Shown here one piece after another: positions 2,941-46,805 of a stretch of DNA of 64,000 nucleotides. The first letter of the stretch is position 1, and each line of letters opens with the position of its first letter. The notes under the pieces were generated by a model that did no database searches, was not told where the DNA came from, and was given only the letters and a program-made list of their open reading frames with translations. Made by a program: the position numbers and the translations under genes. Source of the stretch: Bacilli bacterium (GTDB lineage: Bacteria > Bacillota_I > Bacilli_A > RF39 > UBA660); assembly GCA_036667875.1 (NCBI GenBank), contig JAVWTD010000001.1, positions 5,767 to 69,766 on the forward strand, in the 5' to 3' direction.

Positions 2941-3474
2941 CTATTTTGTATCTATGAGTCCATAATTTCCATCTTTACGTCTATATACTACAGAGTCATT
3001 TCCTGTTTCTTCATTTTTAAATATGAAAAATTCATGTCCTATTAATTCCATTTGAAGAATAGCTTCTTCTTCGTTCATAGGTTTCATTTCTAATATTTTT
3101 CTTTTAACTATGAATGATTCATTATTTTCTTCGTTTTCTTTTTCTTGGGTGAAATTTAATTCTTGTATTATTTTTTTGTTCTTTTTGTTATTCATTTTTG
3201 TTTTATTTTTTCTGATTTGTCTTTCCATTTTTTCAGAAACCAAGTCAATTGAAGCGTATAAATCTTTATTTCCTTCTTCAGCTCGAAGTATGATTTTTTT
3301 TGCTGGTATTGTAACTTCCACAGTTTGTTCATTATTTTTAACACTTATTAGAACCGTAGCTGTTAATTTTTTAGGATTTTCAAAATATTTGTCTAGTTTT
3401 CCAATCTTTTCCTTAATGTAAGTTTTAATTGAATCTGTTACTTCTAAATTTTTACCTCTAATAGTAAATTCCAT
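2941..3474 (-). CDS. hpf: ribosome hibernation promoting factor (long HPF)
   Basis: MEFTIRGKNLEVTDSIKTYIKEKIGKLDKYF... matches the HPF/YfiA sigma-54-modulation family with a C-terminal dimerisation domain. GGAGG RBS 8 nt upstream of ATG at 3474; the ORF-track start at 3489 is the RBS itself. Confidence 0.85.
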   Translation of the reverse strand: MEFTIRGKNLEVTDSIKTYIKEKIGKLDKYFENPKKLTATVLISVKNNEQTVEVTIPAKKIILRAEEGNKDLYASIDLVSEKMERQIRKNKTKMNNKKNKKIIQELNFTQEKENEENNESFIVKRKILEMKPMNEEEAILQMELIGHEFFIFKNEETGNDSVVYRRKDGNYGLIDTK

Positions 3475-3588
3475 ATTATCATCCTCCAATGGTAGTATAT
3501 CATAAAATATTTTTGTTTTAAATAGACTAGTATCATTTCACATAATATAACAAAATTAAAACCTTATAGAAAACTATAAGGTCTTTTT

Positions 3589-3801
3589 TTAAACTAATGC
3601 TGTTTTAATTTCTATTACATTCTTTGCTTGTAGACCTTTGTCAGTTTCTACTAATTCAAATTCGACTATTTGTCCTTCTAATAGGGTTTTATAGCCTTCT
3701 GATGCAATTGCAGAATAATGAATGAAGATATCTTCACCGTTTTTATATTCAATAAAACCATATCCTTTTGAATTGTTAAACCATTTTACTTTTCCACGCA
3801 T
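3589..3801 (-). CDS. csp: cold-shock protein (CspA family)
   Basis: 70 aa, MRGKVKWFNNSKGYGFIE...; RNP1/RNP2-like motifs KGYGFI and FIHYSAI. Confidence 0.9.
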   Translation of the reverse strand: MRGKVKWFNNSKGYGFIEYKNGEDIFIHYSAIASEGYKTLLEGQIVEFELVETDKGLQAKNVIEIKTALV

Positions 3802-3919
3802 TTTAAAATCTCCCTTCTAGTAATTCTCTTACATTTCTAATATACAATACCTAGTTTCCTTTTTCAAGAAATATCAACATACAAAAATCGACATATTTTT
3901 CATTTTTTTAAAATTTGTA

Positions 3920-3950
3920 CATCTTAGACGTTTTCACTATCATCTTAGAC
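3920..3950 (+). promoter_or_regulatory. pair of 10-bp direct repeats CATCTTAGAC with 21-bp periodicity, ~45-70 bp upstream of agrB; candidate LytTR response-regulator binding site
   Basis: CATCTTAGAC at 3920-3929 and 3941-3950, separated by 11 bp. A TATAAAT-like -10 follows near 3983. The geometry matches the known AgrA/ComE/PlnC direct-repeat sites (two repeats, centres two helical turns apart). Confidence 0.45.
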
Positions 3951-3992
3951 ATAACCTATTTATTTTTTTTCTAAAAATGATATCATATAAAT

Positions 3993-4595
3993 ATGAGAGA
4001 AAAAGTTATTGAAAAATATGTTTCATTTCTTCTTAAGTATCATACTTATAGTAGAAAAGAAATACTTACAATCCGATATGGAGTAGAAAATACTTTATTA
4101 TTTTTAGAAAAGATTATTATTATTTTAGTAATAGGATATTTATTAGGAATTTTAAAGATAATGTGTATTTTCATGTTATTTTATATGGGAATTAAGACTT
4201 TCTCTGGTGGGATGCATGCAAGCAGCAGCTTTAGTTGTCTCTTAATTTCTTTAGTTATATTTATTGCATCCCCTATCATTGGAGTACATGTATATTTTAC
4301 ATTATTAGAAAAATTTTTGATATCGTTATTCGTTTTTGCTATATTTCTAATATACAGTCCTGCAGATACTCATAAAAAACCAATTAGAGGTCCTAAAATT
4401 AAAATGCTAAAGATCAAGTCTCTTATAATTATTGATCTTTATTGCATATCTAGTTTTTTCGTTACGAATTATATTGGCAATCTATTAATTATAAGTTTGT
4501 TGGTTCAAGCTTGTATGATATCGCCAATTCCATATAAATTATTTGGATTGCCATATAATAATGGAAGGAGAGAAAAAGATGAAAATTTTAGCTGA
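3993..4595 (+). CDS. agrB: AgrB-family accessory gene regulator protein B (AIP precursor processing peptidase, membrane)
   Basis: 200-aa polytopic membrane protein. The KTFSGGMHASS region resembles the AgrB catalytic His/Cys segment. Its 3' end overlaps a small AgrD-like ORF. Confidence 0.7.
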   Translation: MREKVIEKYVSFLLKYHTYSRKEILTIRYGVENTLLFLEKIIIILVIGYLLGILKIMCIFMLFYMGIKTFSGGMHASSSFSCLLISLVIFIASPIIGVHVYFTLLEKFLISLFVFAIFLIYSPADTHKKPIRGPKIKMLKIKSLIIIDLYCISSFFVTNYIGNLLIISLLVQACMISPIPYKLFGLPYNNGRREKDENFS

Positions 4596-4698
4596 CCTTT
4601 TAGGAAAAATAACTCTATCTTTTGGAACATTAGGTGTTACTTATACTTCATGGTTTGTGTTTGATGAAGCTGAATGTCCAGAAGAAATTAATAACTAA
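4579..4698 (+). CDS. agrD: AgrD-like autoinducing peptide precursor (39 aa), absent from the ORF track
   Basis: GGAAGGAG RBS at 4564-4571, ATG at 4579. Translation: MKILADLLGKITLSFGTLGVTYTSWFVFDEAECPEEINN. It has an amphipathic leader, a hydrophobic core YTSWFVF, and an acidic Pro-containing tail DEAECPEE like the staphylococcal DEVEVPKEL tail. A Ser lies five residues before the acidic tail. Confidence 0.6.
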   Translation: MKILADLLGKITLSFGTLGVTYTSWFVFDEAECPEEINN

Positions 4699-4802: not shown

Positions 4803-6149
4803 CTATTTTGTAGTAATTCTTTCTTTTTTAGGATATTTATTATTTTTTTTGTAAATTAATGTAAGTTTAATAACATTACCATATATTTTCCTATTGAGTG
4901 TGTATTGAGGATTCTTTTTTAATAATTCATTTACAATTGTAAGTCCATGTCCTCTACCTTCACCATTTGTAGAATAGCCATCTTGAGTCATTTTTTCTAA
5001 ATCAATTTTTCCTTTAAAGGTATTTGATATTGCAATAATAAAATTTTTGTTTTCTAGGTAGGCTTCTATTCCTAAGTATGGTGCTCTATCTAATTTTTGT
5101 TTTTCTAATTCTTGCATTGCATTATCTACAAGAATATTGAATATTTGAGTAATTTTTGCTCCTTCTGTATCATCGATGTATTCATCAGGTAACTTTCTTA
5201 AATCATCATCTATTTTATAAATTACAAATATATTTTTTCTATGTGCTTCAACTATTTTATTATATATTGCGGATTTTAAACTAAGACAATCTATTTTATA
5301 TGCTTCAAATTTAATATTTTCATCATCTTTTATTTTTTTCTTTTTTTCAAAAGAGTTACCAACTAAATCAATGTAATTTTTAACTTTTTGTTCATTAGTC
5401 ATTGCTCTTATTGTACAAAGAATATTATTGTTTTCATGATTTTTTAATCTGTAATCATCAACCATTTTACAAGCATCTTTTTGTGATATTTTCATCATTT
5501 TTGTATCTTCTTTTAATTCACATTTTTCTTGCTCACTTTTATAAAGATACCCTGCTACCATAAACATTGATAAAAAAGATATAATAGTAAGAAATACATT
5601 AAATAAAATACTATCATGAATAAAGTTTGTTATCAAAAGATATGAAAATATAATTAAAAATGTATAAAGAATAAATAATAATGTTTTACTATTAAATCTT
5701 ATAAATTTCTCTGATAAGAAGTCATAACAAATTTTAAGAAATTTAGTTTTAGACAAAATTAATATTGAAATTAAGAAGACAATGTTAAAGACATCAAGAC
5801 TGTAAGATGCCATAAATTCTACGGTTGTCTTATAACCAAATATAAAAATTATTGATATTGAAGTTAAAAGTTCTATACCGGCTATAAAACAATCTATAAA
5901 GATTATTGAAAAGACTATTTCTTTATTACTTTTTTCATATATTGATTTTATTGCTAAATACATTGCTCCAGTTGTCAAAAAAAATGCAAAATCAGTTATA
6001 TTTACAAAGTATTTTATTGAAGGAACAATTAACATTATTAATGATCCTAATGTAAGTTTAATTAGTTTAGGTTTTTGGTCAAAGAATTCTCCTATTATTA
6101 GAAGTATAATTATATTTCCTATTAAAGTTATTATTGTTGAGAATGGCAT
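4803..6149 (-). CDS. agrC: AgrC-like sensor histidine kinase (polytopic N-terminal sensor, GHKL ATPase C-terminal, HPK10 type)
   Basis: 448 aa. The N-terminal ~200 aa carry 5-6 TM helices. The C-terminus has NGEGRGHGLTIVNELL, a G-box-like ATP-lid. It sits directly upstream of, and overlaps, the LytTR regulator gene. Confidence 0.7.
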   Translation of the reverse strand: MPFSTIITLIGNIIILLIIGEFFDQKPKLIKLTLGSLIMLIVPSIKYFVNITDFAFFLTTGAMYLAIKSIYEKSNKEIVFSIIFIDCFIAGIELLTSISIIFIFGYKTTVEFMASYSLDVFNIVFLISILILSKTKFLKICYDFLSEKFIRFNSKTLLFILYTFLIIFSYLLITNFIHDSILFNVFLTIISFLSMFMVAGYLYKSEQEKCELKEDTKMMKISQKDACKMVDDYRLKNHENNNILCTIRAMTNEQKVKNYIDLVGNSFEKKKKIKDDENIKFEAYKIDCLSLKSAIYNKIVEAHRKNIFVIYKIDDDLRKLPDEYIDDTEGAKITQIFNILVDNAMQELEKQKLDRAPYLGIEAYLENKNFIIAISNTFKGKIDLEKMTQDGYSTNGEGRGHGLTIVNELLKKNPQYTLNRKIYGNVIKLTLIYKKNNKYPKKERITTK

Positions 6150-6853
6150 AATATATCTAACTCCTTTTTATATTTTAATGATAATAGATCTACTTCTAAT
6201 CCTGTATCAAATTTTATACTTTTCTTTTTCTTATTGATAGCTACAATTCTTTTTAAATTAACAAAACCAGATTTGTGAGTTTGAACAAAATTTTCATCAA
6301 AATATCTTCTAACTTCAATTAATGTTTTGCTTATCTCATAAGTTCCATTATCTGTAACTATTTCTGTTTTTCTACTAACATTTTCTCTTGAAATATATAA
6401 AACACTTTGTTGTCTAAAATAATAATTTGTTGATTTAGTAATTATTTCTACTACATCGTTTTTTATATCATTTTTTATTATATAATTTAATACATTTTCT
6501 AATCTATTTTTTGTATCTTTATTCTTTGTTATAAAAGATGTGATAAATAAATCTAAAGTCAATATTTCTTCTGCTGATTTTTCGTGACTGGTTAACATAA
6601 TAATATGACTTTTTAAGTCACGACTTCTTATCTTTCTTGCTGCTTCAATTCCGCTGCCTGTTGGTGTTTCAATATCTAAAATATATATTTTGTTTTTATT
6701 ATTTAAATAAGTTGCATCGTAAAACACTTGATTATAGTCATTGAATTTAGAAATCTTATATTCTATTTTTTCTTTCAATAAATAATCGTCTATTACTTCA
6801 ATAACTTTATCAACATATATATCATTATCATCGCAAATAATAATTTCAAGCAT
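6131..6853 (-). CDS. agrA: LytTR-family response regulator (AgrA/ComE-like)
   Basis: MLEIIICDDNDIYVDKV... is a receiver domain with DD and K residues. The C-terminal ~100 aa (FRQQSVLYISRENVSRKTEIVT...FVQTHKSGFVNL) is typical LytTR. Confidence 0.8.
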   Translation of the reverse strand: MLEIIICDDNDIYVDKVIEVIDDYLLKEKIEYKISKFNDYNQVFYDATYLNNKNKIYILDIETPTGSGIEAARKIRSRDLKSHIIMLTSHEKSAEEILTLDLFITSFITKNKDTKNRLENVLNYIIKNDIKNDVVEIITKSTNYYFRQQSVLYISRENVSRKTEIVTDNGTYEISKTLIEVRRYFDENFVQTHKSGFVNLKRIVAINKKKKSIKFDTGLEVDLLSLKYKKELDILCHSQQ

Positions 6854-7112: not shown

Positions 7113-7763
7113 TTATTTCCATCCTTCATACCAATTTTTAATTTTAGTTTTTCCATTATCAATTATTTCTTTGCTTTTTTCTTTTATTTCATTTCCTTTT
7201 TCTTTTACTTCATCAACGGTTTCTTTATATTTATCTTCTCCTACTTTTTCTATAACTTTTTCTTCTAAAAATTCTTTGGTAGACTTTATTTTTTCTTCTA
7301 CATAGATTAACACTTTTCCTGTTTTATCTTTTGTAGTTTCTTTATAATCTGGAATTTTCTTTTCAATTTTTGAATCAATACTGCTAGTTATATTTAAAAT
7401 TTTAGTTTTTGTTGTTTCATTTAATTCGTCAAAAGTAATCCCTTTTATTTCTCCGTTGTAAAATAAGAAGTCAACCAGGTTCACAAATATCTCTTTAGAA
7501 CCTTCTTTAAGTTTATCGAAACTATTGTTTTCCAAAATTTCATTTACTTCACTTTCTTTTTCTTCGAAGTAGTTTATAACATATTCATCCTTATTTTTGA
7601 TTTCTTCTGATTTATCTACATAATCTGTTATTTCAATAATATCATTTTTTGGTTCATTGTTTTCAATTTCTTTTTTATTTGTACAACCTGTTGTTACTAG
7701 AACAAAGCCTGTTAATATTACAAAAACAATTTTTTTTACATTAACATTTTTCATATTAGTCAC
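7113..7763 (-). CDS. lipoprotein, Lys/Glu-rich, function unknown
   Basis: Signal peptide with lipobox LVTTGC. Highly charged repetitive mature region. Confidence 0.5.
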   Translation of the reverse strand: MTNMKNVNVKKIVFVILTGFVLVTTGCTNKKEIENNEPKNDIIEITDYVDKSEEIKNKDEYVINYFEEKESEVNEILENNSFDKLKEGSKEIFVNLVDFLFYNGEIKGITFDELNETTKTKILNITSSIDSKIEKKIPDYKETTKDKTGKVLIYVEEKIKSTKEFLEEKVIEKVGEDKYKETVDEVKEKGNEIKEKSKEIIDNGKTKIKNWYEGWK

Positions 7764-7781: not shown

Positions 7782-8084
7782 CTAATCATCATTTTTTACA
7801 ATAATATCTTTTATTTCATTTATCATAATTTTTTCATTTTCCATTGTTAGTAAATAATCTTTTGTTTTAGCTATTATTTTTTTGTTTATTACTTTATTTT
7901 CTAATTGAATTTCAACATCCATTTTATAAATATACTTTGACGATTTAAATATTTCTGCTATTTTCTTTTGTATAGATATAGGATTTTCTTTTGATGGTTT
8001 AGGATTTTCACCATAAACATATTTTTTGTTATTCATATTATTTTTAATTACAGTATTTTGAAATACTTTTGGAAGTTTTTTCAT
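7782..8084 (-). CDS. hypothetical protein (100 aa)
   Basis: ORF lies between the SGNH hydrolase and lipoprotein genes with an 18-bp spacing, so it is probably co-transcribed. No motif recognised. Confidence 0.35.
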   Translation of the reverse strand: MKKLPKVFQNTVIKNNMNNKKYVYGENPKPSKENPISIQKKIAEIFKSSKYIYKMDVEIQLENKVINKKIIAKTKDYLLTMENEKIMINEIKDIIVKNDD

Positions 8085-15844: not shown

Positions 15845-15990
15845 ATCAAAAAAAACTCTTAAGAAAGAGTTTTACGTACCTTTATAAATACTTCTTTCTT
15901 ATCGTTATTAGCTGTACCACCTTGCTTATTGCAGGTTGGTGTGAGATCTTAGAGCTAATTCTCTCCCTCACTCTTGATAAAAGTTATATC
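15845..15990 (-). promoter_or_regulatory. SAM-I (S-box) riboswitch with intrinsic terminator in the metK leader
   Basis: Reverse strand reads CUUUUAUCAAGAGUGAGGGAGAG..GCUCU..CACACCAACCUGCAAUAAGCAAGGUGGUACAGCUAAUAACGAUAAGAAAG, matching the S-box consensus UUAUCAAGAG.GG.GGAGGGA...CAACC...GGUGCUAA...GAUAAG. It is followed by AAAACUCUUUCUUAAGAGUUUUUUUU. Confidence 0.8.
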
Positions 15991-26738: not shown

Positions 26739-26815
26739 TGGGGCGACTAAAGGGAATCGAACCCTTGAGTAACGGAACCACAATCCGCCGTGTTAACCAC
26801 TTCACCATAATCGCC
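26739..26815 (-). tRNA. tRNA-His (anticodon GTG) with genome-encoded G-1 and CCA
   Basis: Reverse strand: G-GCGATTA...anticodon loop TTGTGGT...TAGTCGC-C-CCA. G-1 pairs with C73, T-loop GGTTCGATTCC. Confidence 0.85.
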
Positions 26816-26883: not shown

Positions 26884-26968
26884 TGGTACCGGTAGTCGGA
26901 CTTGAACCGACACGGGCAAAACCCACTTGATTTTGAGTCAAGCATGACTACCATTCCATCATACCGGC
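26884..26968 (-). tRNA. tRNA-Leu (anticodon CAA), class II long variable arm, encoded CCA
   Basis: Reverse strand: GCCGGTATGATGGAATGGTAGTCATG-CTTGA-CTCAAAA-TCAAG-variable arm GTGGGTTTTGCCCGTGT-CGGTTCAAGTCCGAC-TACCGGTACCA. Confidence 0.85.
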
Positions 26969-43212: not shown

Positions 43213-43955
43213 ATACTAAATACCTCTGTTCTTTCATTTTGAGTTGTTATAATTATTTCTTTATCAAAATCTATCAAGTCTGACACAGTTGAATACGCTA
43301 ATTCACTTGAATTATTATTTTCACTTAAATGTGCTAAAACTATTTTTTCGGTTTTAGTACCTATAAAAGACTTTAAATAATAGGAACAGTCTTTATTTGA
43401 AATATGACCGCTATCTCCTAAAATTCTCATTTTTAAAAAGTGTGGTCTATTACTAGACATTAGAAGGTCAACATCATGATTTGCTTCAATTATGTAAACT
43501 GTTCTATTAAATAATAAATTGTTATATTTTTGATTTATATATCCAGTATCAGTTATGTAAACTAAATCTTTATCAAGATGTTTGAATAAGTAACCTCTGC
43601 ATTCTGCAACATCATGAGATAATATAAAACTAGAAACACTAAAATCATTGATTATAATTTCATTTTCATTTAAATAATATTTTTCTAATTTAAAAGGTAA
43701 TTCATTCATAGTCTTAGATGATATATATATTGTTGGATTAATAACTTTAATAATTCTTTTTAAAGCACTAATATGATCTATATGAGAGTGTGTAATAAAT
43801 ATTCCTTCTATTTCACATGGTTCAACATTAATTTCAGCTAATTTATTTGAAATGTAAAGGAAATTAGTACCGGCATCTATAAGAAATTTATGATTTCCTA
43901 TTTGAATGAAAGTACAATTTCCTTTTGATCCACTTGCTAATACACAAAATTTCAT
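43209..43955 (-). CDS. MBL-fold metallo-hydrolase (YycJ/WalJ-like)
   Basis: FIQIGNHKFLIDAGT, ITHSHIDH. Confidence 0.75.
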   Translation of the reverse strand: MKFCVLASGSKGNCTFIQIGNHKFLIDAGTNFLYISNKLAEINVEPCEIEGIFITHSHIDHISALKRIIKVINPTIYISSKTMNELPFKLEKYYLNENEIIINDFSVSSFILSHDVAECRGYLFKHLDKDLVYITDTGYINQKYNNLLFNRTVYIIEANHDVDLLMSSNRPHFLKMRILGDSGHISNKDCSYYLKSFIGTKTEKIVLAHLSENNNSSELAYSTVSDLIDFDKEIIITTQNERTEVFSI

Positions 43956-45443: not shown

Positions 45444-46805
45444 TCACCTATTTTCCACTTCTTTATTAACAATACTAACAAACTTACTTAAATTTTTATG
45501 AAATATAAGATTTATAGTATCAGTAGGGCCACTTCTGTGTTTGGCTATTATAAATTCACTTTGACTATCATTACTTTCATCTTGGTCTTTTTTTAAAGTA
45601 TAGTAATCATCTCTATATAAAAATGCAACTATATCAGCATCTTGTTCAATAGATCCTGACTCTCTTAAATCTGAAAGCATTGGTCTTTTTTCATCTCTTT
45701 GTTCAACACCACGAGATAATTGAGCTAAAGCTACAACTGGAATATCTAACTCCATTGCCATTGTTTTTAAAGATCTTGATATTTCAGAAACTTCTTGTTG
45801 TCTATTTCCTTGATATTTTGGTGAACCTTGAATAAGAGTTAAATAGTCAATTATGACAATTCCAAGACCATTTTCTGATGATGCTAAACGTCTACATTTT
45901 GCTTTTATTTCTCCAATTGTCATTCCAGAAGTATCATCAATAACTAAATTTGTTTCTCCAAGTCTTGCTACTGCTTCATTAATCTTTTTAAAATCATCTT
46001 TTTCTATTTCACCACGTTTTAAATTTCCTAAATCAATTTCACCACACGCTGAAATCATTCTCATCGCTAATTGTTCGGCACCCATTTCCATATTGAAAAG
46101 AGCAACAGTCTTAGATGTTGTCATCGCCATATTTGTTGCTAAATTTAAAGCAAACGCTGTTTTCCCCATGGCTGGTCTTGCAGCAATAATTATTAATTCA
46201 TGTGGATGAAATCCAGTTGTAATTTTATCTAAATCGTCAAATCCTGTTGAAAGACCAGTTATTTCTCCTTTGTTTTTTGCAATTCTCTCTAATTGTTCAA
46301 CTGTTTTATTCAAAACTTCTTGAATTGTTCTAAATTCAGAACCTTTTCTGGTTTTTACAACGTTTAAAATTTTTGTCTCTGCACTTTCTAATATATCTGA
46401 AAGATTATCACTACCTTTGTAAGCATCATCAATAATTAACGATGATTCATTAATCAATCTTCTTAAGACTGCTTTTTCACTTACAATTTTAATATATTCA
46501 TCTATATTTGCAGCACTAGGTACAGTATTTAGTAAAGAAGCCACATATTCTGAACCACCTATGTTTTTTAAAATATTTCTTTTTTCTAATTCTGCTATAA
46601 CAATAGCACCATCTATATTGGTGTTATTTTCAATCATAGTTTGCATAACTTCAAATATTTTTTTATGAGACTCTTTATAAAATAATTCAGATGATAAATT
46701 TTCAACACATTTTTTTGCAGCTTGATCTGATAAAAACATTGAACCTAGAACACATTGTTCTACTTCAATATTATGAGGCATAATTTTATCATCCATAATT
46801 TTCAC
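45444..46805 (-). CDS. dnaB: replicative DNA helicase (DnaB family; dnaC in Bacillus nomenclature)
   Basis: Walker A GARPAMGKTAF, Walker B IVIIDYLTLI, arginine finger RESGSIEQDAD. Confidence 0.9.
   Translation of the reverse strand: MKIMDDKIMPHNIEVEQCVLGSMFLSDQAAKKCVENLSSELFYKESHKKIFEVMQTMIENNTNIDGAIVIAELEKRNILKNIGGSEYVASLLNTVPSAANIDEYIKIVSEKAVLRRLINESSLIIDDAYKGSDNLSDILESAETKILNVVKTRKGSEFRTIQEVLNKTVEQLERIAKNKGEITGLSTGFDDLDKITTGFHPHELIIIAARPAMGKTAFALNLATNMAMTTSKTVALFNMEMGAEQLAMRMISACGEIDLGNLKRGEIEKDDFKKINEAVARLGETNLVIDDTSGMTIGEIKAKCRRLASSENGLGIVIIDYLTLIQGSPKYQGNRQQEVSEISRSLKTMAMELDIPVVALAQLSRGVEQRDEKRPMLSDLRESGSIEQDADIVAFLYRDDYYTLKKDQDESNDSQSEFIIAKHRSGPTDTINLIFHKNLSKFVSIVNKEVENR

Follow-up and report, generated by a model that had tools for sequence, protein, structure and literature searches.

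LytTR sites consist of repeats of 9-11 nt separated by spacers of 11-13 nt, and they share no consensus (PMC4847170). In Staphylococcus aureus, the agr promoters P2 and P3 are preceded by two direct repeats to which an AgrA dimer binds; both promoters are suboptimal and depend on the activator (PMC4227749). The SilA site in the sil system of Streptococcus pyogenes comprises two 10-bp repeats, DR1 and DR2, around an 11-bp A/T-rich spacer; the site is needed for peptide-induced activation by SilA, a LytTR regulator, and changes of 1 bp in the spacer are deleterious (PMC2766830). Boxes of the ComE/BlpR/PlnC type are 9-bp repeats with 12-bp spacers, which amounts to 21-bp phasing, and they stand before -10-only promoters of peptide precursors (PMC2766830; PMC4005675).

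We analysed a 64-kb stretch of DNA from a Bacilli bacterium, hereafter called the window, in which a pair of direct repeats precedes the agrB gene of an agr-like locus. The dimensions of this pair, two 10-bp repeats and an 11-bp spacer, are identical to those of the SilA site, whereas the box sequence differs and the sil signal, a linear peptide resembling ComC, has an ABC exporter in place of the AgrB/AgrD system found here. The 21-bp phasing is shared with the ComE/BlpR/PlnC systems, and the window regulator has its best full-length structural match in ComE. Peptide chemistry and box sequences of these systems differ from those of the window, and their regulator and kinase genes usually lie inside the autoinduced operon, unlike in the window. 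Relatives of the window organism share the divergent two-promoter layout of S. aureus agr, but the divergent partner is a cold-shock protein gene (csp) in these relatives and RNAIII in S. aureus. In further contrast to S. aureus, agrBD and the kinase/regulator genes form separate convergent units here, the latter boxless, agrB is probably leaderless, and the window regulator is only distantly related to AgrA.

The S. aureus AgrA box has the consensus ACAGTTAAG, whereas the boxes here follow the pattern ATTTYARACAW. A consensus for AgrA and LytTR sites in general, [TA][AC][CA]GTTN[AG][TG], was reportedly given by Nikolskaya and Galperin in 2002; judged by eye, the window repeat CATCTTAGAC agrees with it at about 4 of the 8 specified positions. 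Because of this mismatch with the AgrA consensus, we regard the element as a LytTR-type site and not as an AgrA box in the narrow sense. The centre of the proximal box lies near -46 here, compared with about -60 in S. aureus (PMC4227749). Read by analogy with these systems, the window element is a P2-type autoinduction element of an agr-like system, a known kind of switch. Literature searches returned no description of the boxes or of a link between agr and csp.

Results

Genes of the agr-like locus

Left of the csp-agrB spacer, secA (352-2853) and hpf (2941-3489) run leftward, and the cold-shock gene csp (3589-3801) is encoded on the - strand. Right of the spacer, agrB (3993-4595, + strand) encodes a protein of 200 aa that matches Pfam AgrB at 6.5e-29 and whose N-terminus lines up with the start codons of its orthologues. 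The catalytic residues His75 and Cys82 are invariant among 38 homologues, as expected of an agr-type peptidase. A small ORF with its own Shine-Dalgarno sequence overlaps the end of agrB (4579-4698, + strand) and encodes an agrD-like precursor of 39 aa, MKILADLLGKITLSFGTLGVTYTSWFVFDEAECPEEINN; this ORF is annotated as a gene in MAG records. Downstream of agrB, more than 40 loci carry a member of an AgrD family with the tail ...x6-DEPECPKSLIK. Consistently, the window precursor ends in TYTSWFVF-DEAECPEEINN, and its DEAECPEE tail fits the family tail. An AgrD precursor is expected to have a ring-forming Cys some five residues ahead of an acidic tail that contains Pro. In more than 35 relatives, the residue six positions ahead of the DEP tail is a Cys (..AC-x5-DEPECPKSLIK), where the window has Thr followed by Ser. 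The ring-Cys position is likewise occupied by Thr in L012, L052 and L083, and by Ser in L050. With Thr or Ser at the ring position, the signal peptide could possibly be a lactone and not a thiolactone.

The - strand beyond agrD carries an AgrC-type histidine kinase gene (4803-6149, 448 aa) and a response regulator gene (6131-6853, 240 aa), whose ORFs overlap by 19 nt (6131-6149). The kinase has a Pfam HATPase_c_5 match (2.9e-09) and a hydrophobic N-terminal half, and its position is kept in relatives. A sequence-only reading had placed a LytTR response regulator 2 kb from the repeats; indeed, the gene product combines a receiver with a LytTR domain (Pfam Response_reg 1.4e-09, LytTR 2.2e-10) and has the AgrC-type kinase beside it. 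An alignment with ComE (4cbv, E = 7e-5) extends along the entire regulator and pairs its Asp60 with the phospho-acceptor region of ComE. The top structure match overall, 5uic, covers the receiver domain only, and ComE is the nearest structure of a LytTR regulator; no AgrA chain fell below E = 0.001 in this comparison.

In every locus, agrBD is convergent with the kinase/regulator genes, and a single autoinduced agrBDCA operon is not formed. No box pair was found upstream of the kinase/regulator operon in the window, where the best score was -1.4 bits. Among the other loci, a pair precedes the regulator gene in L021 (strong) and in L019 and L093 (both weak), and in no other. An Rfam scan gave no match in the csp-agrB region. 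Across the whole window, the only matches at Rfam gathering thresholds are a SAM riboswitch and two tRNA genes (15896-15983, 26742-26814 and 26887-26968, all on the - strand).

Relatives of the locus

The exact AgrB sequence occurs only in assemblies labelled "MAG: Bacilli bacterium", on six contigs (L001-L006). The spacers of these contigs are 100% identical, but the contigs as a whole are 99.5-99.9% identical, so that the same-species comparison is uninformative. In a search of 5.8 billion proteins, AgrB identity falls from 100% straight to 42% or less. With homologues of intermediate distance missing, alignment-based phylogenetic footprinting could not be applied, and the analysis relied on statistics of position and spacing.

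The gene order is preserved in ~85 loci of related uncultured Bacilli: secA-hpf-csp is divergent from agrB-agrD, which in turn faces the kinase and LytTR regulator genes. The syntenic loci were taken from 7 species-representative genomes and 80 metagenome contigs (human gut, rumen, caecum). Across these loci, SecA is 58-77% identical, and AgrB, kinase and regulator are just 23-42% identical. Clustering of the csp-agrB spacers yielded 49 non-redundant sequences. The contigs L007 (CAYJEO010000011.1, "uncultured Muribaculaceae") and L009 (CAVDCT010000007.1, "Roseburia sp. AF12-17LB") carry the same Bacilli-type locus of 27% GC and are probably mis-binned or mislabelled.

A pair of identical 10-mers upstream of agrB

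A sequence check confirmed two identical 10-mers, CATCTTAGAC, on the + strand at 3920-3929 (distal box) and 3941-3950 (proximal box), with starts 21 bp apart. They had been placed ~45-70 bp before agrB; the upstream location is correct, and the exact span is -73 to -43 from the ATG at 3993. In the register of the family motif described below, the distal box corresponds to the 11-mer ATCTTAGACGT (3921-3931) and the proximal box to the 11-mer ATCTTAGACAT (3942-3952). Between the exact repeats lies a non-repeated spacer of 11 bp, GTTTTCACTAT (3930-3940, + strand), and the + strand context reads TTTGTA CATCTTAGAC GTTTTCACTAT CATCTTAGAC ATAACC. This layout of 10 + 11 + 10 is that of a LytTR-type site, as had been proposed, and it falls within the repeat and spacer lengths reported for such sites (PMC4847170).

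The two boxes are the only exact copies of CATCTTAGAC in the 64-kb window. Copies with one mismatch occur only at 43711-43720 and 46108-46117 on the - strand, where they are intragenic and have no partner. Comparing the 11 nt downstream of the two copies gives 4 identical positions of 11, as expected by chance at 25% GC. That identity stops at the 10-mers speaks against a recent tandem duplication and argues for selection on two short sites. The window has a GC content of 24.9% and contains 28 exact close-range 10-mers at spacings of 11-40, most of them pure A/T. Since close-range 10-mers are this common, the significance of the pair rests on the GC content of CATCTTAGAC (4 of 10 positions, 40%) and on its location. 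When the 191-bp csp-agrB spacer (3802-3992) was shuffled 500 times, 0.2% of the shuffled sequences contained a repeat as informative as this one, counting every spacing between 12 and 36 (p = 0.002).

A search for similar pairs had been suggested as a means to define the regulon, and within the 64-kb window it returned no second pair. When the consensus TTTYARRCA-N12-TTTYARRCA was searched with up to 3 mismatches, 23 matches were found in the window compared with 16.3 expected, which is not distinctive. Exact 10-11-mers recurring at 21-33 bp were also seen at 7176-7290 and 7960-8010, inside the - strand ORFs 7113-7763 and 7782-8084, whose Lys/Glu-rich products match nothing in Pfam. Such repeats probably reflect the coding sequence and have no connection with the boxes.

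Paired boxes at 21-bp spacing in related loci

We scanned the 49 spacers for self-repeats, taking the best ungapped repeat per spacer at each spacing from 10 to 45. The best self-repeat had a spacing of 21 bp in 10 of the 49 spacers and of 20 bp in 5, with ~1.4 expected for each, and 21 bp was within the top three spacings in 20 spacers. Read toward the nearer gene, the family motif is ATTTYARACAW, which is A/T-rich and weak. The 11-mer ATCTTAGACAT of the window matches the csp-facing boxes of L049, L054, L068, L010 and L088 at 9 of 11 positions. Across the spacers (14.3 kb in total), matrix matches of at least 7 bits were paired on the same strand at a distance of exactly 21 bp in 22 cases, compared with at most 3 cases at any other spacing. 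Shuffled spacers gave 0.035 pairs at 21 bp, and one such pair was present in the remaining 322 kb of the loci, where it precedes the L021 regulator gene. The pairs take two placements, either ~40-70 nt before the agrB ATG or ~120-200 nt before the csp ATG.

For cross-validation, a matrix was trained on the csp-facing pairs of 17 other loci, with no agrB-facing site and without the window. In 28 of 49 loci, compared with 6.1 predicted by uniform placement, the best agrB-facing 21-bp pair found with this matrix had its end 40-69 nt ahead of the ATG, and 21 bp was the best spacing (of 12-40) in 20 of 49 loci. In the window, the top pair was 3921/3942 with 12.8 bits, that is, the repeats noted beforehand. 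The window repeat is thus a local instance of a lineage-wide element, and the pair is conserved in orthologous promoters, its 21-bp spacing, motif and position recurring in those 28 loci. No pair above threshold was found in 19 of the 49 relatives.

Boxes within a pair are more alike than boxes of different loci (7.71 versus 6.78 of 11 positions, permutation p < 0.0002), as expected if one lineage-specific protein reads both boxes. With a strict leave-one-out matrix (small pseudocount), the window boxes scored poorly, at -2.0 and 5.1 bits, as neither C at motif position 3 nor G at motif position 10 was seen elsewhere. Given this weak score and the indistinct consensus search, the motif identifies an element only in combination with pair identity, spacing and promoter geometry.

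The agrB promoter

Promoter geometry was derived from the 34 pairs above threshold, which include both orientations, agrB-facing and csp-facing. In 30 of the 34, a TAnnnT begins 28 nt (21 cases) or 29 nt (9 cases) past the proximal 11-mer. Other offsets account for at most 5 cases each, and a control on the mirror side had no peak. A TG extension at -15/-14 is present in 14 of the 30 family promoters.

The sequence-only reading had taken a TATAAAT as the -10 element. This heptamer lies at 3986-3992, abuts the agrB ATG and would put the start of transcription inside the ORF; we rejected it on geometry, as it misfits the conserved distance between boxes and -10. On the strength of the conserved 28-29 nt, the -10 of the window is most likely TATCAT (3981-3986) with a TG at 3978-3979, giving a predicted extended -10, TG-A-TATCAT (3978-3986, + strand), in place of TATAAAT. 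It is separated from the proximal box by an A/T-rich gap of 28 nt (3953-3980, + strand), in keeping with the family geometry. No -35 is recognisable in the window, and ATTTAT occupies that place (3958-3963). The window promoter thereby resembles other LytTR-type promoters, with the pair just 5' of a predicted -10 and a poor -35. Supporting the idea of an autoregulation site, the pair, a related motif and the distance to the -10 are all conserved at the same place in the orthologous loci of related species.

The predicted -10 would set the start site at 3993, the A of the agrB ATG, which implies a leaderless mRNA. From this geometry, agrB mRNA is probably leaderless, and agrB has no Shine-Dalgarno sequence. 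Consistently, the proximal box lies 40 nt from the agrB ATG in the window versus 50-56 nt in relatives; the relatives have a leader of 13-20 nt with a GGAGG-type ribosome-binding site, and window agrB has no such site and probably no leader.

The csp side of the spacer

A csp-facing 21-bp pair occurs in 22 of the 49 relatives, 4 of which also have an agrB-facing pair. Examples are L068 (3815-3880), L049, L054, L041, L044, L079, L010, L052 and L092, among others. The csp-facing pair, usually the stronger one, is followed at 28 nt by a TG-extended TAAAAT of its own, and no terminator lies between it and csp. These features suggest that the csp-facing pair belongs to a box-dependent distal csp promoter in a P2/P3-like divergent layout. 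In the window, no csp-facing pair was found in the spacer (3802-3992), which is the shortest among the 43 spacers bounded by csp.

The csp promoter of the window comprises a -35 TTGAAA (3867-3862), a 17-bp gap and a -10 TATATT (3844-3839), and it is conserved as TTGAAA-17-TATAnT. About 12 nt upstream of this -35, nearly all 43 loci contain a conserved TGTCGAAnTTTG box, located in the window at 3881-3899 (CAAAAATCGACATATTTTT on the + strand, TGTCGATTTTTG read toward csp). L049, L021, L093 and L012 each have 2-3 copies of the box, phased at 10-11 bp, and the box may be a site for another regulator. A small ORF, MSKFD..., over the TGTCGAA box upstream of csp was considered and discarded, as in the window it is cut down to 6 codons and no ribosome-binding site precedes it.

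Discussion

On the evidence of repeat identity, spacing, motif and promoter geometry, we consider it quite probable that the boxes are the site at which the phosphorylated LytTR regulator (6131-6853) activates a leaderless agrBD transcript and so closes a positive feedback. Because their starts are 21 bp, or two helical turns, apart, both boxes lie on one face of the helix. In the proposed mechanism, a dimer of the phosphorylated regulator would bind the boxes, at about -72 to -41, and would recruit RNA polymerase to a -35-less promoter with an extended -10 (3978-3986). From this promoter, transcription of a leaderless agrB-agrD mRNA would begin at the ATG (3993). AgrB would then process and export the AgrD-derived peptide, the peptide would activate the AgrC-type kinase (4803-6149), and the kinase would phosphorylate the regulator, raising agrBD transcription. 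Since the kinase/regulator operon is convergent and boxless, the feedback would act on signal production (agrBD) only.

Which protein reads the boxes bears directly on this mechanism. A Mantel test of box divergence against LytTR-domain divergence showed no correlation (rho -0.05, n = 14 loci). As box divergence does not track that of the LytTR domain, the link to the adjacent regulator rests on co-localisation. Another factor might therefore bind the boxes, either a paralogous LytTR regulator encoded beyond the 64 kb of genome covered by the analysis or an unrelated reader of direct repeats, with the adjacent regulator acting elsewhere; that the boxes are unlike the known AgrA or ComE consensus would suit such a factor. 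Nevertheless, we regard this as unlikely, since the pairs cluster in the spacer beside the agr genes and are nearly absent from the other 322 kb, and the sole pair outside a spacer, in L021, precedes the regulator gene itself. Direct repeats of the OmpR type have a spacing of ~10-11 bp. By comparison, the 21-bp phasing observed here is a hallmark of LytTR sites (PMC4847170).

A regulator bound at the pair could also serve the other gene, so that the site would control the divergent csp, or csp together with agrB, and not agrB alone. A pair of the same motif with its own -10 faces csp in 22 of 49 relatives, and the window pair lies just 118 nt from the csp ATG. In the window, however, the asymmetric motif reads ATCTTAGACAT toward agrB, the best csp-facing pair reaches only -2.8 bits, and the 28-nt distance from box to -10 is found on the agrB side only. 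Together with the conserved TTGAAA-17-TATATT promoter that csp owns (3867-3839), this makes control of csp from the window pair very improbable.

The effect might also have the opposite sign, as some LytTR proteins do repress, for instance AgrA acting downstream of the bsaA promoter (PMC4227749). It is nonetheless hard to believe that the regulator binds here to repress or tune agrBD, with the pair as an operator and not an activator site: the pair lies upstream of the -10 and beside the missing -35, the position used by activating LytTR regulators, and both the -10-only promoter and the need for a feedback loop favour activation. Finally, although the A/T-rich window holds 28 exact close-range 10-mers, a functionless chance repeat or decayed tandem duplication is scarcely credible in view of the p value of 0.002 within the spacer, the identity that ends exactly at the 10-mers, and the conservation of spacing, motif, position and -10 distance while AgrB is only 30-42% identical.

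We thus favour activation of agrBD by the adjacent regulator through the paired boxes. More tentatively, and with somewhat more doubt than belief, we suggest that the window pair could be the surviving half of an ancestral divergent region of the P2/P3 kind. Under this scenario, the direct quorum-sensing output in this lineage of gut Bacilli would be an RNA chaperone made from a long-leader csp transcript, in place of an RNAIII-like RNA. The csp-facing half would have been lost in the window species, L009, L033 and L051, leaving a bare autoinduction loop, a leaderless agrBD mRNA and an AgrD with Thr/Ser.

For the window organism, the biology implied by our model is conventional, namely positive feedback on signal production. 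The analysis provides a testable cis-element and promoter model for agr-type signalling, comprising the boxes, a 28-nt gap, an extended -10 and a leaderless start, in a lineage of uncultured, very low-GC Bacilli from gut and rumen without prior regulation data. The family pattern, ATTTYARACAW-N10-ATTTYARACAW followed by 28 nt and TAnnnT, is usable for a readout of the regulon in complete genomes; its searchable form is ATCTTAGACNT-N10-ATCTTAGACNT with up to 3 mismatches, then TAnnnT after 27-30 nt. What may be new to specialists is that, in relatives of this organism, boxes of the same motif face the gene of a cold-shock protein.
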